53,673 nt of DNA from Escherichia phage mEp515. Positions 10,163 through 52,046 of this stretch are shown here, one piece after another. The stretch is from the sequence record PP180003; one strand, written 5' to 3'. The position numbers were made by a program, and so were the translations under genes. A model generated the notes under the pieces. The model made no database searches. It was not told the DNA's origin and worked only from the letters and a program-made list of their open reading frames with translations. Position 1 is the first letter of the stretch. The number at the start of each line of letters is the position of its first letter.

Positions 10163-10467
10163 CGTGTTTTCTCCTATGGTTAGAGTGAACGCGCGGGCGG
10201 GTATCCCATTAGCATTAGATAGCAGTGACTGACCGCTCAACAGATCCCGCCATTGCGTGATATTTGTTTTTCGCATCGCAGCGACACCGGGTTTTTAAAG
10301 AGCTTAAGGCGTCGGCCTTTTTGTGCTTTCCCTTATCTTTTTCCTTGCGTCATTGCAAGTATGGCTTTACCTTGTCAGCAAGTTTACAGAATGGCGCTAA
10401 CAGGTCAAGGCTTGAAAAACACGTTTTGTGACTTGCATCAAACTTTTTTAGGTTATAGGGTAGCGAC
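10163..10467. promoter_or_regulatory. Immunity-region intergenic switch: divergent promoters/operators between cI-like repressor and leftward early operon
   Basis: 305-bp non-coding interval between divergent genes; TTGCAAG-type half-sites; candidate -35 TGACTT at 10429-10434. Confidence 0.4.
10272..10303 (-). promoter_or_regulatory. nutR-like element (boxA-like GCTCTTTAAAAA plus short hairpin) on leftward transcript
   Basis: Minus-strand reading AGCTCTTTAAAAACCCGGTGTCGCTGCGATGCG; 26/33 identical to plus-strand copy at 19470-19502. Confidence 0.3.
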
Positions 10468-11115
10468 ATGAAAACAAAATGGTATGACTTAGCAAAGCAG
10501 CTCATGCGGGCGCAGGGCATGAGTCAGGATTCATTGGCTGATCTCATGGGGATAACCAAAGGTGGCCTTTCGCACTGGCTGAACGGTCGCCGTGAGCCAA
10601 ATCTTGAAGATATTGCGCGGATCATGCGGGCGCTTGGGCGTCGGCAGTTTACTGTCACACATGACGGGATGGTTATCGATGATTCTGTTTCTAACACGTT
10701 ACCGGGAGCGCCACCGCGTGATTTAGGCAGTTACCCGGTTGTTGACTGGAAGGATGTAGCAAACAATATGGAAGGCACATGCCGATCAACATTGCCACAC
10801 ATTACTACTAGCGTTATTTGTTCGGATGATAGTTATTGGCTGGTTGCTAAAGGTGAATCAATGAACGCACCGCAGGGGTTAAGCATCCCGGCGGGGACTA
10901 TGATACTCGTTGACCCGCACGCGCCAGCTATTGACGGAAAACTTGTTATAGCACAACTGGAGGAAGGGCAGATACCTACGTTTAAACAGTTGATTATTGA
11001 TGGAGGCCGAAAACTTTTGCGTTCACTGAATCCGTTGTATCCGCCGATCCCTATGAATCCAGAATCAAAAATCATAGGCGTGGTGGTTGATGCGAAGATC
11101 GTAAACCTGCCATAA
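10468..11115 (+). CDS. cI-like repressor (HTH_XRE N-terminus, S24 LexA-like autopeptidase C-terminus)
   Basis: 215 aa; HTH MSQDSLADLMGITKGGLSHWLNGRREP; C-terminal GESM serine motif and downstream Lys. Confidence 0.8.
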   Translation: MKTKWYDLAKQLMRAQGMSQDSLADLMGITKGGLSHWLNGRREPNLEDIARIMRALGRRQFTVTHDGMVIDDSVSNTLPGAPPRDLGSYPVVDWKDVANNMEGTCRSTLPHITTSVICSDDSYWLVAKGESMNAPQGLSIPAGTMILVDPHAPAIDGKLVIAQLEEGQIPTFKQLIIDGGRKLLRSLNPLYPPIPMNPESKIIGVVVDAKIVNLP

Positions 11116-11146: not shown

Positions 11147-11238
11147 TCTGAAAAAACACCAAAACGTAAACAGAAAACGCTATTTATTGTTTAAATATCA
11201 ATAGCATATAAAATATTTTAAAAAAGTATACAAAATGG

Positions 11239-11267
11239 ATTGACTCGGTGTTTTACGGGGCGTATAT
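11239..11267 (+). promoter_or_regulatory. Strong sigma70-type promoter (pL-like) for rightward early operon
   Basis: -35 TTGACT (11239-11244), 17-bp spacer, -10 TATATT (11262-11267); TACAAAATGG motif abuts the -35. Confidence 0.6.
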
Positions 11268-11522
11268 TGCGAATCAAAGGAAGGGCGTAGGTAACAAAAG
11301 CAGCTTCCTGGCACTTTAAAAATCAGGCTTAACACCTTGTCAACCGTGGAGTAACTCCCCGATGGGGGACCGAAAGCGGCACTGATAACAAGGCGCATGG
11401 GGTGTTTAAAGCGTTACATCCCCCACGAAACCGCACGCAGGGCGACGAGTCAGCTTGCTTGGAGTGAGCAAGGTCACGCCGGGAACGGCGATGATTGCGG
11501 GATTAGTTGAAAGATGTTAAGC

Positions 11523-15815: not shown

Positions 15816-15820
15816 CATCG

Positions 15821-15880
15821 TGATTGCGATCACATAAATATACATTTTGTGTTGTGATCGCATATCCGTTTTGTAAACTG
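15821..15880. promoter_or_regulatory. Intergenic inverted repeat TGCGATCACA / TGTGATCGCA flanking a TACATTTTGT motif (candidate operator or internal promoter)
   Basis: 10-bp arms separated by about 18 bp containing TATACATTTTGT; lies upstream of ORF 15915. Confidence 0.35.
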
Positions 15881-18134: not shown

Positions 18135-18618
18135 CAGGTTATTGGCCTGCGTTTATGTCGCCGTTTTCGTGATCATCAACCTAATTGTTAACCATTGCGG
18201 CCCGTGGGTGATTCCTATCACTACGGTAGCCGCTGTGTGTGTCAATATGATGATCCGCGACTTCCTGTTATATGACGGCGGTATCAAGTGGTCGGCGACA
18301 ACATGCGCCGCCGCTGGCGCAATCACTGTGCTGATAAATTACGACGCCGGAATGGTAGCGATCGCGTCATTTGTTGCGGTTGTTTCCGGTGCACTTATTT
18401 CTGGCGGCGTTTACCGGGTTTTACCTGGTGACTTTGATTCAAAACGATGGCCTGCAAATATAGCGTCAGCAATAGGCGATGCGTTGATTTTCCCTACGCT
18501 ATCGTTTATGGCATTCATGCCGGAAATATCAGCAATGCAATTCATATCCAAAATGGCGGCGGTAACGGTGATCACTATCATCATGCGCCGCTATTTTACG
18601 TTTGAGGGTAGAAAATGA
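18115..18618 (+). CDS. Integral membrane protein (4-5 predicted TM helices)
   Basis: Strongly hydrophobic segments throughout; start uncertain (18106 or 18115). Confidence 0.5.
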   Translation: MKKVTIDRLLACVYVAVFVIINLIVNHCGPWVIPITTVAAVCVNMMIRDFLLYDGGIKWSATTCAAAGAITVLINYDAGMVAIASFVAVVSGALISGGVYRVLPGDFDSKRWPANIASAIGDALIFPTLSFMAFMPEISAMQFISKMAAVTVITIIMRRYFTFEGRK

Positions 18619-19373: not shown

Positions 19374-19470
19374 AATTTACAAAATGGCGTCATTGCGTGA
19401 TATGGATCACATAATGGCGCTTTTCACCTTGTTATGACGTATCCATTTTGTATACTTCAAACAAGCAAAA

Positions 19471-35646: not shown

Positions 35647-36123
35647 ATGTCTGAGACTTGCAAAAATGGCTCATTTACAGGCCGTGACGTTGCTGTATTC
35701 TTTGCTATCGCTTGCCCTAACGCCAAACCGGAAACTGGAGCGTACAAGGCGTTAGGCATGATGCGCGGCAAAACACTTTCCGTAGAATGGGAAACCGCAG
35801 ACGCCACCGCTGATAAATCCGCCGACTATACCAAAGAATCCCTGGTCACTTACAAATCTGTTTCTTTCTCCGGCGACGGCGTATCACGTAGTGATGCTCT
35901 ACACAACCAGAAAGAACTAAAGCGGCATGTAATGTCACCGGGCACTGCTACCGGAAATCAGCCGTACGTGTGGCTAAAAATCGTCACCCCCACCGATGTG
36001 ACTGAGGGTCCATTCCTTTGCACATCTTTCGAAGAAGAAGCGCCGCACGATGATGTGACAACCTGGTCCATTGAGTGCGAAAGCGCGGGCCAGGTAACTG
36101 TAACCGATCCAGTTGTCGCATAA
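35647..36123 (+). CDS. Putative major tail tube protein
   Basis: 158 aa; AAGAGGT SD; followed by terminator then chaperone and tape measure. Confidence 0.5.
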   Translation: MSETCKNGSFTGRDVAVFFAIACPNAKPETGAYKALGMMRGKTLSVEWETADATADKSADYTKESLVTYKSVSFSGDGVSRSDALHNQKELKRHVMSPGTATGNQPYVWLKIVTPTDVTEGPFLCTSFEEEAPHDDVTTWSIECESAGQVTVTDPVVA

Positions 36124-36156: not shown

Positions 36157-36167
36157 GGGTGAATACT

Positions 36168-36848
36168 ATGATCCATGTTCGTACAGGACAATTTGCGGCT
36201 GTGGTGAACGGTAAGCGCTATAAATTTAACCCGTGTTTCGCTGCGATGGCTAAAATCGGTAATGACAGGGAGCTTGTGGAATGTTTCGCAACCATCCACG
36301 GTAGCAAATACCCTTCACGATTACCTACAGATCCAGACCTCCGCAATCGCATTATGGCGCGGTGTTATGGTGAGATAGTACAAACGTCAATGCGCATCCT
36401 GAAATGTTGCTCAGACGACGAAACAGGCCCGTTATTAGGCGAATGCTGGTTCACTCCTTCGGGTAAATTGAGATTAAAACCGGGAATAATGCCAGTTGAT
36501 GATGTTATCACGCTGGCGCAACACTGCATGTACCACGGTTTAATTGGTGACGGCCCTGAAGAGGTCGCAAGCGATAGACGGGAAGGTGAATACAAACCAA
36601 CGTTCGACATACTGGAGTTTGTTTATTCTGCCGTTGCTCACCTGGGGTTATCAGAATCAGAAGCGTGGAATATGACAATGACCGGATATAGGGCCGCTGT
36701 GCGTGCTAAAACGCCGTCAGAAGCAAGAAACAAACAAAAACGACCAGATGTATTACTGGATAAAAAGGCTTATGACGATGGAATGAGGGAGGCTATGGAG
36801 ATATTAAAAAGAATGGAAAATAGCGAGCAAGAAAAAGCCCGGGATTAG
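36168..36848 (+). CDS. Putative tail assembly chaperone
   Basis: Position immediately upstream of tape measure; no frameshift site identified. Confidence 0.4.
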   Translation: MIHVRTGQFAAVVNGKRYKFNPCFAAMAKIGNDRELVECFATIHGSKYPSRLPTDPDLRNRIMARCYGEIVQTSMRILKCCSDDETGPLLGECWFTPSGKLRLKPGIMPVDDVITLAQHCMYHGLIGDGPEEVASDRREGEYKPTFDILEFVYSAVAHLGLSESEAWNMTMTGYRAAVRAKTPSEARNKQKRPDVLLDKKAYDDGMREAMEILKRMENSEQEKARD

Positions 36849-36869
36849 CCGGGCCTCTAAAATTCTGTG

Positions 36870-37229
36870 TTAGTTGAAATACGCATCAACTCTGTGGGCC
36901 ACGTTTACACCATAAGACTCGCCATCCTTAAACGCATTTAGTGACGCTTTATTATTTTTTGCCGCCTCTTTTAATCCATTGTACTTGCTATTAAGATCTT
37001 TCCATTCAGCGGTTTTTTCTAATACTGGCTTCATTGCGTAATGAATACAGCCAACGTTAAATGGCATTTCCAGATCACCATTACCGTCACCATGCTTTAT
37101 ATCGTACAACTGAGCATTATGCGCACATTCACGAAGTATGTATTTTGCAGACGGAGAGTGCTCAGCATTAGCATTAAGCGCAACCCCTGCAAGTACCGCC
37201 ACGATTAAGATTTTTGCCAGACTTTTCAT
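36870..37229 (-). CDS. Secreted/periplasmic protein of unknown function (opposite-strand moron in tail operon)
   Basis: 119 aa; signal peptide MKSLAKILIVAVLAGVALNANA with AxA cleavage site; two Cys in mature part; minus-strand terminator hairpin at 36837-36856. Confidence 0.6.
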   Translation of the reverse strand: MKSLAKILIVAVLAGVALNANAEHSPSAKYILRECAHNAQLYDIKHGDGNGDLEMPFNVGCIHYAMKPVLEKTAEWKDLNSKYNGLKEAAKNNKASLNAFKDGESYGVNVAHRVDAYFN

Positions 37230-37241
37230 ATTTCACCCCGC

Positions 37242-37331
37242 TTAGTTTTTGTTTTTCAGTGCTTTTAACATTTCTTCGATGAAGTCAGCATAGCGCTCAT
37301 GTTCGCTGGGGTGGTAGTTTACGTTTTTCAT
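37242..37331 (-). CDS. Small ORF (29 aa) upstream of secreted moron
   Basis: AAGAGGA SD; MKNVNYHPSEHERYADFIEEMLKALKNKN. Confidence 0.3.
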   Translation of the reverse strand: MKNVNYHPSEHERYADFIEEMLKALKNKN

Positions 37332-37488
37332 TTTCTTATCCTCTTTTGCTTCCTCCGGTCAATCCGGTCTTTTAAATCCCTTTGCTCTATCCCTTTCCTT
37401 TATCTTCTTTATACAAAATGTACTCGTTGAAGTGAAGCCATTTTGTATAAAATAGAGACATAGATCACATTTTGTATGAGGTTAAATC
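37332..37488. promoter_or_regulatory. Divergent regulatory region with three TACAAAATGTA-family motifs and TAGATCACA
   Basis: Motif copies at 37412-37422 (perfect palindrome), 37439-37449, 37468-37477. Confidence 0.4.
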
Positions 37489-40400
37489 ATGTCAACAAAT
37501 TTAGGCACAATTTATTACGAGGTTGATGCAAAAACGGGTCAGCTTCTGACTGTTCAACGCGAGGTAGATCGCGCAACTGGCAAAATGGAAAAGGATTTGG
37601 AGCGCGTGGATAGTGCCGCTACCCAGGCAAGCAAGTCACTGTCAAAGCTATCCTCGATTGCCAGCGCCCTGGGTGCTGCAATGGCAGCGAAAAAAATCAT
37701 TGAGTATGCAAACGCCTGGCAGGAGGTGAATAACAGGCTAATCAATAGCGTTCGTGCTGGTGAATCACTGGCAGACGTTAATCAGCGTGTATTTCAGATC
37801 GCGCAAAATTCACGAAGCGACCTTGATGCTACAGCAGATCTTTACGGTAAATTAGAGCGCTCGACGCGCGACGCTGGTTTATCGACGAAAGCACTTGGTG
37901 ATATGGTTGAAACCATTAACAAAACATTCCGCATTTCTGGCGCTTCTGCCGCTGAAGCAGAAGGCGGGATCCGTCAGTTGGGTCAATCCCTCGCCAAAGG
38001 TGTTTTGAATGGCGATGAATTTAACTCCGTTACAGAAAACGCCACCAGGCTGTCAGAGGGTTTGGCTAAATCACTGGGCGTATCGTCAGCAGAAATGCGC
38101 AAGATGGCAGCAGAAGGGAAAATCACCCGTGAAGCTATCATTAAAGCCCTTAAGGAAATGAAGGCGGAGGTTGATGCTGAGTTTTCTAAACTCACCCCAA
38201 CTATGCAGGAGGCTTTCACTGTTGCAGGCAACAACGCAGCTAAATTTTTCGGCAGCAATTCGTCAATTATGGGCGGGATTGGTGCTTTTAATTCGGCAGT
38301 TGTAACCCTGTCAGAAAACCTTAACGAAATAGCTACTGCATTTATTGGCCTTGCCACTGTGATGGGTGGCAGAGTGGTAAATAAATTCGTAGCTGCAACA
38401 GCAGAGGCATTAACTAACGCTCAGGCAACCAGGGCACAAACGGCAGCGGCACGGCAGGCCGCTCAGAGTGAATTGGCGCTAGCTAACGCTCAGGTGGTAT
38501 CAGCACGGCAATCAGCAGCGGCGGCGGCGGCAAGGCTGAGAGAGGCGCAGGCTTATGCTGCGGCAAATGCCGGAACAAAATTCGAAGTTCAGACGCTGAA
38601 AGAACTGGCTGTAGCCAAAGCACAGAACACAGCGGCATCAAACTCCCTTACTGCGGCAGAGCAGCGCCTTGCTGCGGCCCACACTGCGGCGGCAGCTAAT
38701 GCAGGACTACTAAAAACAGCATTTAGCGCTACTTTAGGCGCAATAGGCGGTATACCCGGCGCGTTAATGCTTGCTGTTTACGGATTGACATCATATGTAG
38801 ATCACGTAGATCAAACGGCAGAGGCAAATCGCAACCTTGCCGATTCAGTGGACGTTAGCACCGAATCACTGGAGCGAATGAGTAAGGCGGCTAAACTGGC
38901 TGGCGCAGATAAGCTACAAATATCAATGGGTCAGTTAGAGGAAGACATTGCCAGTCTTAACAAACAGATTGACCAGGACACACAGGCGCTAGAACTGAAT
39001 AAACAGGCACTGGAGAAAGCAGAGGAGGGGTCACGCGCTTACGCTAATCTATCGAAAGCTAATCAGGAAATAACGGCCCGTCTAACCAGGGAAGAAGCGC
39101 AGCGTGAAGATATTCTCGACCGCCTTAATCAAATGCAGCGCAAATATATTTTGCTTATGCAGGATACAGATCCTCTAATGAAGACCCTTGCCACTTCGTT
39201 GGGGTTGGTAGCAGACGCATACGGAAGAATCACCACAGAAGCAGAACGCGCAGCAGCAGCAACGCAACACGCTTCAGCAGCGCTTAACGCAGATCAACAA
39301 GAACTAATGAATCTGGCAAACCGCCGCCTGGAGCTGGCAAAACTCGACTCCAAAACAGCCAGCAGGGAAAAGGCGATTGATGGGTTTAAGCGTGAGGCTG
39401 AGAAAGCAAACCTGACCGGGGAAGCGTATGAAAAATACATGGCTACAATGACCAAAGCGTACGACACCGAGCAGAAACGCGCCGAAGCTGAAAGAAAGGC
39501 CAGTCATGGGAAAAAAACTGGCGAAAGCGAGGAGAAAAAACATCTAAAAGAGGCTGAACGCCTGCGCAAAGAGCTTGAGAAGCGGGGCCAGAATGTTGCA
39601 GACAAATACAACGTAGAAGCCGCAGCACAACGGAAATTAAAAGAGGATCAGGATGCGCTAAACGCCGCACTTAAAAGCGGGAAAATAAGCGCGGAACAAT
39701 ACAATAAGGCATGGAAAGAATTAATTGGAACCGAGGAACAACGCAAACGTCAGGCTGGTTGGGATAATCTGGTAAACAATGAGCTACAACTACGCGGGCA
39801 ACTAGACCCAATTCAGCAGGCGATGAATGAATGGGCGGTTCGCAAGCAGATGCTCACAGATTTAGGCGCTACAGAGCAATATATGAGGGAGCAAGAAAAA
39901 GCGCATGAGAGGGAAATGCTATCACTTCAGTGGGAGAGGTATAAGGCGCAGTCATTGACCAACCAACTGTTAGGCGATGCTGTTGATGCAATGAGCGGAT
40001 CTGCAACTAACGCGCTTGTCGGCCTGATTAACGGTACTCAAAATTGGCAACAGGCGATCGCTAACATTGGCAATACAATCCTTTCCTCCGTGATTGGTAC
40101 GATTGTTCAAATGGGTACTGAGTGGGTCAAGCAGCAATTGATTGGTGATACAGCAAGAACTATGGCAACAACCAAAGCACTGGCAGAGGCGGCAGCGTTA
40201 TCATCAGCGTGGGCTACCCCTGCATACCTGGCAAACGTTGCCACGATGGGCGGCGCTGGGGCCACTGGACTTACTGGGCTTACTACTGGCGTCGCTGCCG
40301 CCAAAACGCTTGGACTGGCTGGCGCTCGTTATAACGGCGGTGCGGTTAACGGTGGTAGCCTGTATCGCGTAGGGGAACACGGTAAGCCAGAGATCTTCCA

Positions 40401-40644
40401 ATCTCGAAACGGTGAACAGTATATGATTCCTGGTGACAACGGCAGGGTAATACCAAATCGCGACATTGGTGGTGCGGGTGGTGGTAACGTTAGTATAAAC
40501 GCACCGATTAGTGTTTACCCACAAAATGGATGGAGTGATGAGGACGCCAAAAAACTACAGCAGGATATGGAAAAGATCTGCATGGGCCTGATACACCGCG
40601 AATCATCCAGACCGGGCGGAATGCTGCAACCGCGCCGCAAATAA
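37489..40644 (+). CDS. Tail tape measure protein
   Basis: 1051 aa; long coiled-coil/Ala-rich protein with Gly-rich C-terminus. Confidence 0.85.
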   Translation: MSTNLGTIYYEVDAKTGQLLTVQREVDRATGKMEKDLERVDSAATQASKSLSKLSSIASALGAAMAAKKIIEYANAWQEVNNRLINSVRAGESLADVNQRVFQIAQNSRSDLDATADLYGKLERSTRDAGLSTKALGDMVETINKTFRISGASAAEAEGGIRQLGQSLAKGVLNGDEFNSVTENATRLSEGLAKSLGVSSAEMRKMAAEGKITREAIIKALKEMKAEVDAEFSKLTPTMQEAFTVAGNNAAKFFGSNSSIMGGIGAFNSAVVTLSENLNEIATAFIGLATVMGGRVVNKFVAATAEALTNAQATRAQTAAARQAAQSELALANAQVVSARQSAAAAAARLREAQAYAAANAGTKFEVQTLKELAVAKAQNTAASNSLTAAEQRLAAAHTAAAANAGLLKTAFSATLGAIGGIPGALMLAVYGLTSYVDHVDQTAEANRNLADSVDVSTESLERMSKAAKLAGADKLQISMGQLEEDIASLNKQIDQDTQALELNKQALEKAEEGSRAYANLSKANQEITARLTREEAQREDILDRLNQMQRKYILLMQDTDPLMKTLATSLGLVADAYGRITTEAERAAAATQHASAALNADQQELMNLANRRLELAKLDSKTASREKAIDGFKREAEKANLTGEAYEKYMATMTKAYDTEQKRAEAERKASHGKKTGESEEKKHLKEAERLRKELEKRGQNVADKYNVEAAAQRKLKEDQDALNAALKSGKISAEQYNKAWKELIGTEEQRKRQAGWDNLVNNELQLRGQLDPIQQAMNEWAVRKQMLTDLGATEQYMREQEKAHEREMLSLQWERYKAQSLTNQLLGDAVDAMSGSATNALVGLINGTQNWQQAIANIGNTILSSVIGTIVQMGTEWVKQQLIGDTARTMATTKALAEAAALSSAWATPAYLANVATMGGAGATGLTGLTTGVAAAKTLGLAGARYNGGAVNGGSLYRVGEHGKPEIFQSRNGEQYMIPGDNGRVIPNRDIGGAGGGNVSINAPISVYPQNGWSDEDAKKLQQDMEKICMGLIHRESSRPGGMLQPRRK

Positions 40645-41327: not shown

Positions 41328-41834
41328 CTATTTACCGTGATTTGGATGAAAACCGTATTTAATTTCGGCTTCTTGCCTTGCCTTGATTGCATCATCTTTG
41401 CTTTTGAATACCCCTAAATGTTTTAATTTTCCGTTGATTCTGATAACTGCGCACCATTTACGCAATCTTTCAAGCCAATAAACACCAGCACAGCCGGATT
41501 TATTATTATGGTTGCGACTTCTGTTGTGGTTATTGTCTTTGCAGGTAACTAGCCGCAAATTTTCTATATGGTTGTTTACCTTATTGTGATCGATATGATC
41601 TATTTCCATTCCTTCCGGGATTGGTCCGTTGTGCATTTCCCATATAATTCTATGCTCTTGGTATATCCTCCTGTTAAACCCTACATGTATATACCCACTT
41701 CGTTTATGAAGGCACCCGGCTCGCTTTCCCGCATATCTTGAATTCCAGGTTTTGGAAACGCCATTTCTTGGCTTCCATAATATAGCGCCGTCACTGTATA
41801 TAAAATAATCATTCCAGTTAATTACTTGTGACAT
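41328..41834 (-). CDS. HNH homing endonuclease with AP2-like domain (copy 3 of 4)
   Basis: HRIIWEMHNGPIPEGMEIDHIDHNKVNNHIENLRLVTCKDNN plus AP2-like C-terminus. Confidence 0.8.
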   Translation of the reverse strand: MSQVINWNDYFIYSDGAILWKPRNGVSKTWNSRYAGKRAGCLHKRSGYIHVGFNRRIYQEHRIIWEMHNGPIPEGMEIDHIDHNKVNNHIENLRLVTCKDNNHNRSRNHNNKSGCAGVYWLERLRKWCAVIRINGKLKHLGVFKSKDDAIKARQEAEIKYGFHPNHGK

Positions 41835-42076
41835 CCGCGCACCCCTGACAATTCATTAAATTTGTGATGCTCGACGATTACCCATGCTTTCAAGTCCTGG
41901 CTATAAACACGCCAATCTAAATTGGCGCGGAAGGCGTAGCCGTAGCCGTCCTTTAATTTTTTGGGTGCAACATCCTTGTTTAAAAACGCGTTCAGAAGTG
42001 CTTTTGCTTTTTTGATTACGTGTCCAGGTGCGTTTTTCTGTGCTTTCAGGTTTTTACCAATCGCCACCAATTTCAT
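41822..42076 (-). CDS. Hypothetical basic protein (84 aa)
   Basis: Lys-rich; start MKLVAIGKNLK. Confidence 0.45.
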   Translation of the reverse strand: MKLVAIGKNLKAQKNAPGHVIKKAKALLNAFLNKDVAPKKLKDGYGYAFRANLDWRVYSQDLKAWVIVEHHKFNELSGVRGCHK

Positions 42077-42093
42077 AACACACCCCACAATCC

Positions 42094-42249: not shown

Positions 42250-42419
42250 TGTTGGCCCCCTTTGTCGGTACTGCTTTTTCTTCTTGCTTACTATATACAT
42301 CTTGTCACGCCTTATGTGAAGCCATTTTGTAAACTGGTTATAATTCTTGTGATGAATTTCTCATTTTTCGCGTAGAAGCGCGTAAAGATGTATGCAATAT
42401 GTAACTTATAGGGGGAATC

Positions 42420-42773
42420 ATGCCAGAAGTTTTCAGATGGACGCCGCAAAGAAGCTACAGCGTGACCAGGGAACCAAATGTGTCTGTCATTAAACTTGGT
42501 GATGGGTATGAACAGCGCCAGGCGAAAGGGATTAACACATTGCTTGACAGCTACACCCTGGTCTTTAAAGGCAGTAGCGCAGGATGCGGTGATGGTGGGA
42601 ACGTGGCGATCCAGGCAGAAGCATTCTTGAGGGCGCGCGGCGCTGTCGATGCTTTCTACTGGACGCCTTCGATGGATGGGGTGCAAAGGCTTTTCGTTTG
42701 CCGTAGCTGGAGCATGACCAAAGACGGGCCTGTGTACACGCTAAACGCAACGTTTGAACAAGTTGTTGGCTAA
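42420..42773 (+). CDS. Minor tail protein M (lambda gpM-like)
   Basis: 117 aa; FRWTP...GDGYEQRQ...FYWTP...ATFEQVVG matches lambda gpM landmarks as I recall them. Confidence 0.85.
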   Translation: MPEVFRWTPQRSYSVTREPNVSVIKLGDGYEQRQAKGINTLLDSYTLVFKGSSAGCGDGGNVAIQAEAFLRARGAVDAFYWTPSMDGVQRLFVCRSWSMTKDGPVYTLNATFEQVVG

Positions 42774-43149: not shown

Positions 43150-43398
43150 CTATAAGTTATCACGCAGATAATTAACGCCCTTATCAGTAACGAATGAATG
43201 GTTGACCTGGTTTTCATCCGTCATGATGATGAATAACTTTTCCTGTAGGTATTTCGCTTTCGGGTACAGTGTTAAACAGACCTGGTACAGTATCCCGCGC
43301 TCAATCAGCAAATGAATAAATTCGTGTTCATGATAACCGATAAGGCGGGCGGCCTGTTTCAACGTGTACACATAATCCCCGTGATTACGCCGCGCCAT
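43150..43398 (-). CDS. Small HTH DNA-binding protein (82 aa)
   Basis: HTH-like YTLKQAARLIGYHEHEFIHLLIERGIL. Confidence 0.5.
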   Translation of the reverse strand: MARRNHGDYVYTLKQAARLIGYHEHEFIHLLIERGILYQVCLTLYPKAKYLQEKLFIIMTDENQVNHSFVTDKGVNYLRDNL

Positions 43399-43407
43399 AC
43401 TCCCACC

Positions 43408-43758
43408 CTATTTATTGAACGCAGACAAATTGTCGATACAGAAATCTTTAGCCGCTTTTTCGTATTCACGTTTTGCTTCAGGATCGTCAGCCGGGAAACC
43501 TTTTGCGTGTATTTCGCCAGGGCAAGACTGATCCATAGAATCAGCAAATTCAACATTGACGTTAAAGTTAATATCTTTCGGGTTCATCTCTTCCACCTTA
43601 TCCGGTACTTGGACCGGAGTAATATCAAAATCACGATAGTTAAACCCACAGCGAAGTAATTCACGACCTTCATCACGCGCCGCAGCATATGTGTCAAATA
43701 GGCCCATGCGTTCCCATCCGCATTTATTGGTAAACACGTCTAAACTGTATTTTTGCAT
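43408..43758 (-). CDS. Hypothetical protein (116 aa)
   Basis: ORF; no motif recognised. Confidence 0.5.
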   Translation of the reverse strand: MQKYSLDVFTNKCGWERMGLFDTYAAARDEGRELLRCGFNYRDFDITPVQVPDKVEEMNPKDINFNVNVEFADSMDQSCPGEIHAKGFPADDPEAKREYEKAAKDFCIDNLSAFNK

Positions 43759-43926: not shown

Positions 43927-44053
43927 CGCACACCTCCGCGCCATTTTGTTAACCCTGCTTCCTTTTGAGTACAATATACATATTGTAAAAAGCGCTATCA
44001 ACCGTTTTGGTATGATTTAGCGTGACGTAGATCACAAATTGCAAGGTGATAAA

Positions 44054-44760: not shown

Positions 44761-45492
44761 ATGGCGCTTGAAGATAAAATGATTCGCTATGCCGCAGCAC
44801 ACCCGGAAGAGGAGGTGTGCGGGCTGGTGATAGATAACGATTATTTTTACCCGTGCTTAAACGTGTCTGAAACGCCGCACAACAGCTTTAAAATATCGCC
44901 TGACGATTATATCAAAGCTGACGAATTAGGCGTTATAACCGCCGTTTTTCACTCCCATACTGACAATTCGTTGATATTGTCAGCACGGGATCGACAACAG
45001 CAGGTTATTTCCGGCCTGCCGTGGTATTTGTGTTCCGGCGGCAGGGTTAGAAAGTTCCGCCCGGTGGCGCACCTGTTGGGCCGTAAATTTGAACACGGTA
45101 AAACAGATTGTTACTCGCTTTTCCGTGACGCATATCACCTATGCGGCGTGGATCTGCCCGACTTTGAGCGCCACGATGGGTGGTGGCTGCGTGGGGAAAA
45201 CCTGTACATAAAAAACCTGCCATTGAACGGGTTTTTCATGGTTGACGCGCAAAGCATTCAGCCAGGTGATGTGATTATTCGCCAGCCTTTTAAAGGCGCT
45301 GACCCATGTCACGCGATGATTTACCTGGGCGATAACACCGTTTTGCATCATGACAATGCCGGACTGTTAAGCCGCCGCGAGCAAATGCGGCCAGCTTATG
45401 TTAGGCAAACGCATTCAATATGGAGATCTGACAAATGCTCAAATTTAGATTTACGGGCAATCTTCGAAGATATTACGGCAAGGTGTGTTTAA
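44761..45492 (+). CDS. Tail assembly protein K (lambda gpK-like; MPN/JAMM plus NlpC/P60-like)
   Basis: VFHSHTDNS (HxH) and later Cys/His pair; position after L. Confidence 0.8.
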   Translation: MALEDKMIRYAAAHPEEEVCGLVIDNDYFYPCLNVSETPHNSFKISPDDYIKADELGVITAVFHSHTDNSLILSARDRQQQVISGLPWYLCSGGRVRKFRPVAHLLGRKFEHGKTDCYSLFRDAYHLCGVDLPDFERHDGWWLRGENLYIKNLPLNGFFMVDAQSIQPGDVIIRQPFKGADPCHAMIYLGDNTVLHHDNAGLLSRREQMRPAYVRQTHSIWRSDKCSNLDLRAIFEDITARCV

Positions 45493-50758: not shown

Positions 50759-51703
50759 TTAATAAATTACTGGCAAATAAGGAAGATTCATACCTATACA
50801 GAAATCCGGCCTGTTACCTATTTCATACCTGACAATCCTTGATCCTGTTCCGCTTTTCACCTGCCCGTTGTACATCATAATGCCTTTGTATCTTAGTTCC
50901 TTGTATGCTGATATAGCTCTAGTATTAAAGCCGCATCTCAATATTGGGAAGAACGCGTCACCTATTGTCTGGTAACTATTCGATAACGCTATAAATCCCT
51001 TAACAACCAATGGCCTTTGTTTTGTTGAAAACACGCATTGATTATTTTTATTAATGATGGTTATTCCGTCGCCAGGTGATGGCGGTGATTTGCTAAAAAT
51101 AGCCAAATTCATCGTTACCGATCCATATGTGTCACCAGTTGCAGAAGTGTTTGTGTTTGTACAGATCAATTTATTGTTTCCGTCAAACTCAACTGAAACA
51201 CCGCTATTGCTCCAGTTACCGAAAGGAACACCGGCAACTGGCATAGTGTAAGAACCATTAAAGCTAACACTCCCAACCCATAAACATGACATCAATGTAT
51301 CGTTAGTCGTTATCGATGCAAAATCTGTGCTATCTGCAACTAATATACCCTCACCAGTAGACGCCTTTGCTATCTCAAACACGCTACCGCTAAAATTAGT
51401 GATCCTATCAGAATATGCGTTCTCACCACTAATTGAAATCCTTGCCGTGCCACCAGAAGCACTAAAGCCTGATATAAAATATGTTTCAACACCCCTGTCA
51501 AGCTCAAACGCGTAAGCGCCTACCTTTGGGATTAGAAACTTATCGCCGCCAGTTAAATCCTTTATGGAAAAACTTTGCGAAAACCCAGCATTTTGAATAT
51601 TGAAATCTCCAGCGTGTGAGAACGCACGCAACCCGCTTGTTATTTCCATTGCAGGGCGTCCGTCATTCAGCCCAATATATATACCCGCCCCCATTAGTAC
51701 CAC
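50759..51703 (-). CDS. Hypothetical beta-rich protein (314 aa), opposite strand between J and side tail fibre
   Basis: Ser/Thr/Gly/Asn-rich; no signal peptide recognised; start overlaps upstream lipoprotein gene. Confidence 0.5.
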   Translation of the reverse strand: MVLMGAGIYIGLNDGRPAMEITSGLRAFSHAGDFNIQNAGFSQSFSIKDLTGGDKFLIPKVGAYAFELDRGVETYFISGFSASGGTARISISGENAYSDRITNFSGSVFEIAKASTGEGILVADSTDFASITTNDTLMSCLWVGSVSFNGSYTMPVAGVPFGNWSNSGVSVEFDGNNKLICTNTNTSATGDTYGSVTMNLAIFSKSPPSPGDGITIINKNNQCVFSTKQRPLVVKGFIALSNSYQTIGDAFFPILRCGFNTRAISAYKELRYKGIMMYNGQVKSGTGSRIVRYEIGNRPDFCIGMNLPYLPVIY

Positions 51704-51912
51704 TCCTTACTTCCGCAATCTCTAGTCTTGCCACTATGACCATCAGTGCCATCATAAACGCGACAGATCTCACCGGACGGAACCTTAGCCCCGTCAACCC
51801 ATCTTTCATAGCAGACACCGTATGCGCTAGTTGCACAATGGCCGTTGTGTCGATTAGTGTCAGCGCAACCAACCAGAATAGCCGCAACAGCGATAATTGT
51901 TACCATTTTCAT
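51694..51912 (-). CDS. Small Cys-rich lipoprotein (candidate Llp/Cor-like superinfection-exclusion lipoprotein)
   Basis: 72 aa from MKMVTIIAVAAILVGC (lipobox LVGC); six further Cys; GGGGTG SD; adjacent to receptor-binding genes. Confidence 0.5.
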   Translation of the reverse strand: MKMVTIIAVAAILVGCADTNRHNGHCATSAYGVCYERWVDGAKVPSGEICRVYDGTDGHSGKTRDCGSKEWY

Positions 51913-52046
51913 TAGTACACCCCACTCAGATTGTGTGTATTTGTTGCTTTGTTTATTATAATATACATTTTGTATAAGCATAAAATGCAACATAGATCAC
52001 AAAATGGTAGAATTATTCCGTTAATTAACATAATGGAGTCATTGCG

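Follow-up and report, generated by a model that had tools for sequence, protein, structure and literature searches.

Why does the plus-strand tail operon of Escherichia phage mEp515 carry a small pair of minus-strand genes just ahead of its tape-measure gene, and what might their product do? We addressed this question in sequence record PP180003, whose entire stretch of 53,673 nucleotides is called the window below and was assigned to the mEpimmI group (mEp021-like) of E. coli phages. Members of this group are temperate, Nus-dependent, non-lambdoid E. coli siphophages (PMC11893012), and in human faeces they have been reported to match lambdoid phages in frequency (PMC11893012). Temperate phages alter the surface and defence of gut E. 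coli mainly through morons, and few of the functions of morons are known. Our preferred, still tentative explanation is that the pair forms an independently transcribed moron whose exported product would protect the carrier cell at its envelope, most plausibly by superinfection exclusion. What the analysis adds is that, where HK97 has its historical moron, these phages have a slot that is permanently occupied and exchanges its cargo.

An exchangeable slot in the tail operon

A preliminary description of the window had reported a 29-amino acid (aa) and a 119-aa open reading frame (ORF) on the minus strand within the plus-strand tail operon, and this pair was recovered here, with both ORFs under purifying selection. 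The placement between a tail chaperone gene and the tape-measure gene stands insofar as the cassette lies between the DUF6246 and tape-measure genes, whereas the DUF6246 protein is a putative tail assembly chaperone by gene position only. The cassette and its flanks comprise the following features.

36159-36848, plus strand: DUF6246 gene, left flank (Pfam DUF6246, E=2e-53; phrog_791)
36829-36857, minus strand: intrinsic terminator of the cassette, a hairpin GAGGCCCGG/CCGGGCUUU running into UUUUUCUU, with a free energy (dG) of -15.7 kcal/mol
36870-37229, minus strand: 119-aa cargo gene (predicted signal peptide 37164-37229; 97-aa mature domain 36873-37163)
37242-37331, minus strand: 29-aa leader ORF (MKNVNYHPSEHERYADFIEEMLKALKNKN), conserved and hydrophilic, without a signal peptide
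37332-37401, minus strand: predicted 5' leader of the cassette transcript, placed from the predicted promoter; purine-rich and unstructured
37489-40644, plus strand: tape measure gene, right flank (1051 aa, long type; Pfam TMP_3, E=1.7e-55)

We compared 71 loci encoding DUF6246 relatives from IMG/VR, together with loci from complete E. coli genomes and from contigs carrying members of the 119-aa protein family. Of 17 distant relatives, whose DUF6246 proteins are 28-41% identical, 13 have the DUF6246 and tape-measure genes 38-121 nt apart, whereas the gap in the E. coli group measures 516-1323 nt and is filled with minus-strand ORFs in all 57 loci (57/57); over every E. coli-group relative compared, it spans 510-1323 nt. 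The cassette is thus an insert between genes that are adjacent in relatives, which is the original operational definition of a moron, drawn from comparing HK97 with HK022 (PMC3594210). Compared with mEp021, mEp013, mEp044, mEp010, mEp554 and MagusPhagus, the tail-gene region is 82-96% identical with a gap exactly over the cassette, and the GC content of the cassette (0.36-0.42) is below that of the flanks (0.47-0.50). Adjacent flanks in distant relatives, swapped cargo, low GC, an own terminator and a conserved promoter-like element all support the moron assignment that had been proposed, and we regard the cassette as almost certainly a moron. As a phage moron it is well formed and otherwise rather ordinary, the definition of the slot being the added element.

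Nucleotide homology between phages with different cargos ends at 36842-36856, in the terminator, and resumes at 37209-37245, a zone that spans the first cargo codons and the stop of the 29-aa ORF. Once the first 22 residues are set aside, the cargos fall into at least eight unrelated families, distributed as follows.

VasI/TagO-like lipoprotein: 18 loci
137-139-aa secreted protein, including mEp021 gp63: 17 loci
124-aa BamE-like lipoprotein: 14 loci
family of the 119-aa protein (family A): 14 loci
100-107-aa membrane protein: 7 loci
106-aa soluble protein: 7 loci
165-aa secreted protein: 2 loci
singletons: 1 locus each

When the 119-aa family was aligned with the 138-aa and 165-aa cargos by hhalign, only residues 1-22 matched (probability 96% and 86%), implying that unrelated mature domains stand behind essentially one export signal; homology among the cargo families of different phages was ruled out, as the signal peptide alone aligns. 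At least one signal-peptide, lipoprotein or membrane protein was detected in every slot locus by a hydropathy and lipobox heuristic. The sister cargos mEp021 gp63, mEp013 gp85/86 and MagusPhagus CDS0039 have slot, strand, terminator and predicted promoter in common with the cassette, and most sister cargos also come with the 29-aa leader ORF and have a signal peptide that is nearly identical (MKxLxK...AFNANA), but no relationship to the 119-aa family was detected in their mature domains and all are annotated as hypothetical. mEp021 gp63 lies outside the set annotated as virion structural from mass spectrometry, whereas its neighbours lie inside it. In several sister-phage slots (L006, L007, L015, L016, L045-L048 and L058) we also observed a conserved, usually unannotated 32-35-aa single-pass hydrophobic peptide, M(D/E)xIKxxIDVYxxAWxAFNxMAVxVLA..., which accompanies the 100-aa membrane cargo or a 116-aa subfamily.

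The comparison of slots bears on whether the 119-aa protein could contribute to tail assembly or lysis of the phage itself, for instance by acting in the periplasm as a helper linked to the long tape measure. Among the loci sampled, the long (~1050-aa) type was found only with family-A cargo (10/10 loci and 5/5 complete genomes), the cargos concerned including two subfamilies only ~30% identical to each other, and mEp021 gp80, from another opposite-strand gene of the group, is annotated as a virion protein. However, the identical cargo allele P0003 lies beside tape measures of different lengths in two contigs, 1049 aa and 735 aa (L089 vs L090), which rules out an obligatory coupling between cargo and tape-measure type and indicates that crossovers in the conserved promoter region occur. 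Other family-A subtypes pair with a 780-aa tape measure, phages with an entirely different slot cargo are viable, and tails assemble in the cytoplasm whereas the 119-aa protein has a predicted export signal. The association amounts to about two independent lineages, is broken by the L090 recombinant and is explained by physical linkage; we treat it as a lead and not as evidence, and consider a role in tail assembly or lysis very improbable. The long tape measure differs just by a longer central region and contains no enzymatic domain, and a lytic domain in it as the target of an inhibitor was ruled out, TMP_3 being its sole domain.

The predicted exported product and its family

The 119-aa ORF is preceded by a ribosome-binding site (RBS), GGGGTGA, 5-6 nt ahead of its ATG. 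Its N-terminus, MKSLAKILIVAVLAGVALNANA, followed by EH after the predicted cleavage site, combines an n-region with two Lys, a hydrophobic core of 12 residues and Ala residues at -3 and -1, while a lipobox Cys is absent and the first Cys is residue 35. The protein has the features expected of a Sec (signal peptidase I) substrate, and these features are kept across the family. Although the call was made by heuristics and not by SignalP, charge, core, the AxA motif and family conservation bear out the Sec signal peptide that had been noticed earlier. A full-length AlphaFold2 (AF2) model is confident except at residues 1-23, where alone the predicted local distance difference test (pLDDT) falls below 50. 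It is highly likely that the product is an exported periplasmic protein.

Structure prediction, which the preliminary description had proposed as a check, gave a confident model of the mature domain with four helices (pLDDT 94.7; predicted template modelling score, pTM, 0.87). The residues invariant in the family (28-99% identity) are C35 and C61 (precursor numbering), A, Y, G, A, P and a C-terminal G-E-x-x-G motif. In the model, C35 and C61 lie on helices 1 and 2 at roughly matched distances from the connecting loop, and a periplasmic Cys35-Cys61 disulfide is plausible. As modelled, the protein looks like a small, stable periplasmic binding module, and it most likely acts by binding a partner because it has no catalytic signature.

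The ratio of non-synonymous to synonymous substitution rates (dN/dS) of the 119-aa gene is 0.13-0.24 at dS 0.6-1.3 when compared with three diverged alleles. A separate comparison of 36873-37229 with the closest diverged allele, P0002 (L093:4001-4357; 88% aa identity), gave 14 non-synonymous and 3 synonymous differences (dN/dS ~1.2-1.5). This excess of non-synonymous changes could reflect recent relaxed or diversifying selection, the counts being too small to decide.

Family members are few. A word-indexed search of 5.8 billion proteins yielded only four near relatives, at 76-97% identity; with the mature domain as query, exhaustive phmmer over 1.84 billion representatives returned four proteins at E <= 0.001. 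Profile search of the 5.8 billion proteins extended the family to 21 clusters, none of them named and each from E. coli or Caudoviricetes, and each genomic context that was read for members proved to be the DUF6246/tape-measure slot. As the family is confined to the slot, a phage-specific function appears more likely than an imported host function. The gene occurs 5 times in 5,426 complete E. coli genomes, and no copy was found on plasmids. A prophage 97% identical is carried, for instance, by E. coli MIN12 and by strains 190 and 2-331.

Profiles of Pfam, PHROGs, NCBIfam and PADLOC matched neither ORF, apart from a lone PHROG match (E=0.05) that spanned the signal peptide. No PADLOC catalogued defence protein matched either ORF or six other slot cargos, a profile search of PDB with the 119-aa family found no relative, and the BFVD viral structures gave no match to the 119-aa model at E <= 0.001. 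The product had been called unassigned, correctly in view of the absence of relatives in all six of these collections (Pfam, PHROGs, NCBIfam, PADLOC, PDB and BFVD), and we describe it as a previously undescribed four-helix protein of an uncharacterised and very small family.

These properties also raise the possibility of a periplasmic immunity or neutralising protein against a type VI effector, a colicin or a lysozyme, which would benefit the lysogen in competition or in the gut. The protein is small, helical and, by prediction, periplasmic, with a conserved Cys pair and without a catalytic motif, and such a profile is common among immunity proteins. Furthermore, the slot elsewhere carries the VasI/TagO-like lipoprotein (Pfam VasI, E=2e-16; annotated by the Prokaryotic Genome Annotation Pipeline, PGAP, as a type VI secretion system-associated protein), and the hosts are gut E. 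coli. However, no family member was found outside the slot, whether in type VI loci, on colicin plasmids or in chromosomes, and no cognate toxin gene lies nearby. Type VI immunity or a similar import is disfavoured because the family is confined to this phage group, and we hold an immunity function to be improbable.

Predicted transcription signals and the leader ORF

The preliminary description had placed a terminator at 36837-36856, and a minus-strand GC-rich hairpin with a U-tract was confirmed there (36829-36857 in our delimitation). It shares sequence with the final codons of the DUF6246 gene. The terminator is one-directional, acting leftward only, because the U-tract exists on the minus strand and the plus-strand version of the hairpin has none. 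The mEp021 and mEp013 records annotate a terminator at the same place, whereas a generic terminator scanner chose a different and poorer hairpin. Nothing convincing was found as a rightward promoter for the tape-measure gene, and late-operon read-through across the one-directional terminator would be the simpler model of its transcription.

On the promoter side, the region between the 29-aa ORF and the tape-measure gene contains the following elements.

37408-37449, minus strand: predicted leftward promoter P2, with upstream element TATACAAAATGG (37438-37449), -35 element TTCACT (37431-37436), 17-nt spacer and -10 element TATAAA (37408-37413)
37403-37420 and 37439-37456: arms of an 18-nt inverted repeat, 89% complementary, holding motif copies 1 and 2
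37454-37469: AGAGACATAGATCACA, a degenerate palindrome copy centred ~-60.5/-61.5 from the predicted P2 start
37466-37476, minus strand: third motif copy, overlapping the GATCACA half-site just ahead of the tape-measure RBS and varying among the 15 loci aligned below

When 15 loci that between them carry seven different cargo sets were aligned for footprinting, three blocks proved invariant, CTTTATACAAAATG, AAGCCATTTTGTATAAAATAGAG and GATCACA. The elements of P2 and their spacing are invariant or near-invariant in these loci regardless of cargo, with TTTACT and TTCATT as variants of the -35 element, which follows the upstream element after one base; conservation stops just past the -10 element, even where the 29-aa ORF is missing. 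We infer that the conserved minus-strand blocks constitute a leftward sigma-70-type promoter with a predicted start near 37400-37401.

The region had also been described as carrying three TACAAAATGTA motifs. With at most one mismatch, this pattern has copies at 37412-37422 and 37466-37476; the middle copy, TACAAAATGGC (minus strand), has two mismatches and was located via its 8-mer core ACAAAATG at 37439-37446. Copies 1 and 2 are indeed conserved, as an inverted repeat that contains the predicted promoter and is invariant in the 15 loci, but the third copy is not conserved, and the motif occurs genome-wide rather than specifically in the cassette. Across the window the 11-mer has 11 matches at <=1 mismatch against 1.6 expected, and the 8-mer ACAAAATG has 20 against 4.5 expected, mostly intergenic. 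By this distribution the motif is a general promoter-associated element of the phage, not a mark of the moron, and may act as a proximal UP-like element or as the site of a regulator. The 8-mer sometimes stands directly ahead of RBSs (6068, 7726, 11910 and 37468). As for the motif being an operator of the CI-like repressor, the divergent repressor promoter region instead has different CTTG..CAAG dyads, which are not significantly enriched. In the region 10340-10445, beside the CI-like repressor gene (10468-11115), we noticed dyads of the CTTGC-N-GCAAG type at 10344-10359 and 10371-10382 and a weaker one near 10431, which are candidate operators of the repressor; operators are not defined in the publication that describes these phages (PMC11893012).

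Three copies of the composite ACAAAATGG-N-TTSAC-N17-TATA are present in the window, at 37408-37446 (minus strand), 42292-42330 (minus strand) and 11230-11268 (plus strand), although the pattern was defined after the sites had been seen and its chance expectation is no fair test. The copy at 11230-11268 is a strong promoter right after the repressor terminator and leads into an N-like early operon, and the copy from 42330 to 42292 fronts an opposite-strand insert with ParE-like and HNH genes. A fourth, looser copy was seen at 43973-44010 (minus strand), likewise ahead of an opposite-strand insert among the tail genes. Lysogen expression of the cassette is not implied by its sequence, since the early N-like operon has the same promoter design.

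The cassette might instead encode an early lytic envelope modifier, activated together with the early operon upon infection or induction and shielding the infected cell or the progeny. T4 Sp/Imm and T5 Llp are analogues for such early-lytic shielding from secondary infection. The composite promoter also fronts the N-like antiterminator operon, which is necessarily silent in the lysogen, and motif copy 1 overlaps both the -10 element and the spacer in the cassette promoter, so that a repressor bound there would shut the promoter off. However, the motif resembles a proximal UP element (A-tract at ~-41 to -44) and may be a constitutive enhancer. The same promoter design drives the ParE-like toxin insert, and genes of that kind are usually expressed by prophages; the head-on orientation in a heavily transcribed late operon disfavours late lytic expression. 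We consider early lytic expression unlikely, albeit worth bearing in mind.

Upstream of P2, an AGAGA-N6-TCACA pattern at 37454-37469 is kept in relatives. The window contains five palindromes of the form GTGAY-N4-RTCAC, which resembles the CRP consensus, against 0.08 expected, and six CRP-like sites (TGTGA-N6-TCACA, <=1 mismatch) against 1.6 expected. The palindrome could be a CRP site or the operator of a phage regulator, and its geometry at P2 fits, suggestively, a class I CRP site. Its copies lie at 15820-15833, 18208-18221, 19397-19410, 44022-44035 and 45125-45138, with degenerate copies at 37454-37469 and 51986-52001, and several adjoin the ACAAAATG motif and lie ~60-70 bp upstream of predicted leftward promoters.

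A CRP-like site at ~-61 would suit nutritional control and, together with the moron architecture, the envelope destination, the gut-associated distribution and the BamE-like lipoprotein among the slot cargos elsewhere, might point to a host-fitness or virulence-type lysogenic-conversion factor acting in envelope stress, adhesion or serum resistance, in the manner of lambda Bor and Lom. However, the CRP assignment is tentative, and the family is very rare (5/5,426 complete E. coli genomes), belongs to one phage group and has no bacterial homologues, and a fitness factor of this kind is in our view improbable.

The leader RNA has no significant structure (fold z = -0.7), and an Rfam scan yielded sub-threshold chance matches only. 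The leader, which is kept wherever the 29-aa ORF occurs, contains a tandem ATCCCTTT(G/C)CT repeat. Six or seven GGA motifs in the leader mRNA, together with an AGGGAU tandem repeat, resemble CsrA-type binding sites.

The 29-aa ORF has its own RBS (GAGGA, 8 nt ahead of ATG), and its stop lies 12 nt from the 119-aa ORF. Its pooled ratio of non-synonymous to synonymous polymorphism (pN/pS) is 0.06, the 19 variable sites falling 3/2/14 by codon position. This third-position bias of the 29-aa frame excludes the plus-strand ORF annotated at the same position in MagusPhagus. Since its amino-acid sequence, with the conserved core Y(R/H)P(N/S)E(H/Y)ERYADFIEEMLKALK, is under selection, the ORF appears to be more than a passive upstream reading frame. 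It occurs in 38/61 loci, ahead of six different cargo types, and is missing from the others, among them two with the same 119-aa subfamily. A protein search, run with a 46-aa extended query because 29 aa is too short, placed it in the mEpimmI-type phage group only. The 34-aa ORFs called in some loci were rejected as artefacts starting at an ATG inside the motif. Both ends of the 29-aa ORF carry a 16-nt direct repeat (37243-37258 and 37315-37330, 88% identical; in the coding sense ATGAAAAACGTAAACTA at the start and TGAAAAACAAAAACTAA at the stop), and in some same-cargo loci the ORF has been lost by a deletion of ~133 nt.

Proposed function and comparison with known systems

In the mechanism that we propose, the conserved leftward P2 would start a short transcript that runs against the tail operon through the purine-rich leader, encodes the hydrophilic 29-aa peptide first and the 119-aa cargo 12 nt later, and would stop at the one-directional terminator, while late rightward transcription could still read into the tape-measure gene. 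The cargo would be exported by Sec and cleaved after Ala22, and the mature 97-residue four-helix bundle would fold in the periplasm, probably clamped by the Cys35-Cys61 disulfide. There it may protect the carrier cell by interfering with a periplasmic step in the DNA delivery of related phages. Exclusion is favoured because HK97 gp15 provides a precedent in the same slot and the cargos are consistently envelope-targeted, and because cargo turnover is expected in an arms race. An exclusion-type function of the 119-aa protein itself is possible rather than probable.

The tail region of the window contains further opposite-strand genes, which are listed here with the tail tube gene.

35647-36123: tail tube gene, upstream of the DUF6246 gene
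41328-42088, minus strand: second insert, between the tape-measure gene and a minor tail gene (42420-42773), encoding a ParE-like toxin-domain protein (88 aa) that overlaps an HNH_3 endonuclease (168 aa); ParE-like genes occupy the same place in related contigs
43150-43758, minus strand: third insert, among tail genes, encoding an 82-aa KilAC/ANT antirepressor-domain protein and a 116-aa protein without a family match
50759-51703, minus strand: DUF6453 gene, following the Lpp021 gene on the same strand
51697-51912, minus strand: copy of Lpp021, a 72-aa lipoprotein (MKMVTIIAVAAILVGC...) 100% identical to mEp021 gp81 (Pfam Phage_lipoprotein, E=5.6e-31)

Lpp021 has been shown experimentally to exclude mEp021 and mEp515 (PMC11893012). 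mEp021 gp80, a minus-strand homologue of the DUF6453 gene, is annotated as virion structural, and for this reason the opposite-strand genes of the tail region are not all accessory.

Several points weigh against a moron that provides superinfection exclusion. The 119-aa protein has no similarity in sequence or fold to known exclusion, immunity or inhibitor proteins, and its signal peptide and disulfide are predictions. Promoter activity and the timing of expression of the cassette are read from the DNA; a strict consensus promoter scan did not flag P2, whose -10 element is without the final T, and by its likeness to the early-operon promoter the cassette could be expressed in the early lytic phase and not in the lysogen. 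In addition, the phage already encodes an exclusion lipoprotein, Lpp021, and, judging from mEp021 gp80, opposite-strand orientation alone leaves a virion role possible.

A more speculative extension, which we think improbable, is that the slot serves as a dedicated 'expression dock' with a fixed promoter, a selected 29-aa peptide of regulatory role, a shared signal peptide and freely exchangeable domains of periplasmic or lipoprotein type, and that the 119-aa family represents a new soluble periplasmic class of superinfection exclusion intercepting the incoming tape measure or DNA conduit. If true, such interception would explain the pairing of the 119-aa family with the long tape-measure type. 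Definition of the slot supplies recombination boundaries, a predicted promoter and start, a selected micro-ORF and at least eight envelope-protein families. The 119-aa family is rare and thus of small direct ecological weight, its value being that of a tractable soluble periplasmic moron product.

Among known systems, HK97 gene 15 is the closest precedent. This superinfection-exclusion gene, the first moron, lies between the tail assembly chaperone and tape-measure genes (PMC3594210); the prophage expresses gp15, which prevents DNA entry in a manner dependent on the tail tube or tape measure (PMC3594210). The two systems have in common the slot, a small product that is envelope-targeted, by prediction in the case of the 119-aa protein, absence from close relatives and own transcription signals, the promoter of the cassette being a predicted one. 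They differ in that the cassette lies on the opposite strand, has an extra 29-aa ORF and occupies an always-occupied, cargo-swapping slot. The proteins are unrelated in sequence: gp15 is an inner-membrane, YebO-like protein with an uncleaved N-terminal helix, whereas the 119-aa protein has a predicted cleavable Sec signal and a soluble four-helix domain, and no Pfam or NCBIfam match places it in the YebO/gp15 family. Neither effector-adjacent homologues nor profile or fold matches were found that would place it among periplasmic type VI immunity proteins. T4 Spackle (Sp), which inhibits the tail lysozyme of an incoming phage in the periplasm, is small, Sec-exported, largely helical and disulfide-containing and acts by binding a component of that phage. 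The 119-aa protein resembles it in being small, helical and, as predicted, exported, with a Cys pair. Lpp021 represents a group of prophage-encoded envelope proteins that exclude superinfecting phages (PMC11893012). The 119-aa protein is like Lpp021, Cor and Llp in being, by prediction, an envelope protein from this phage group whose gene lies on the minus strand amid the tail genes, but those proteins have a lipobox, whereas the 119-aa protein has neither a lipobox nor a Phage_lipoprotein match. Because the window carries its own copy of Lpp021, the cassette appears to provide a separate, additional function.

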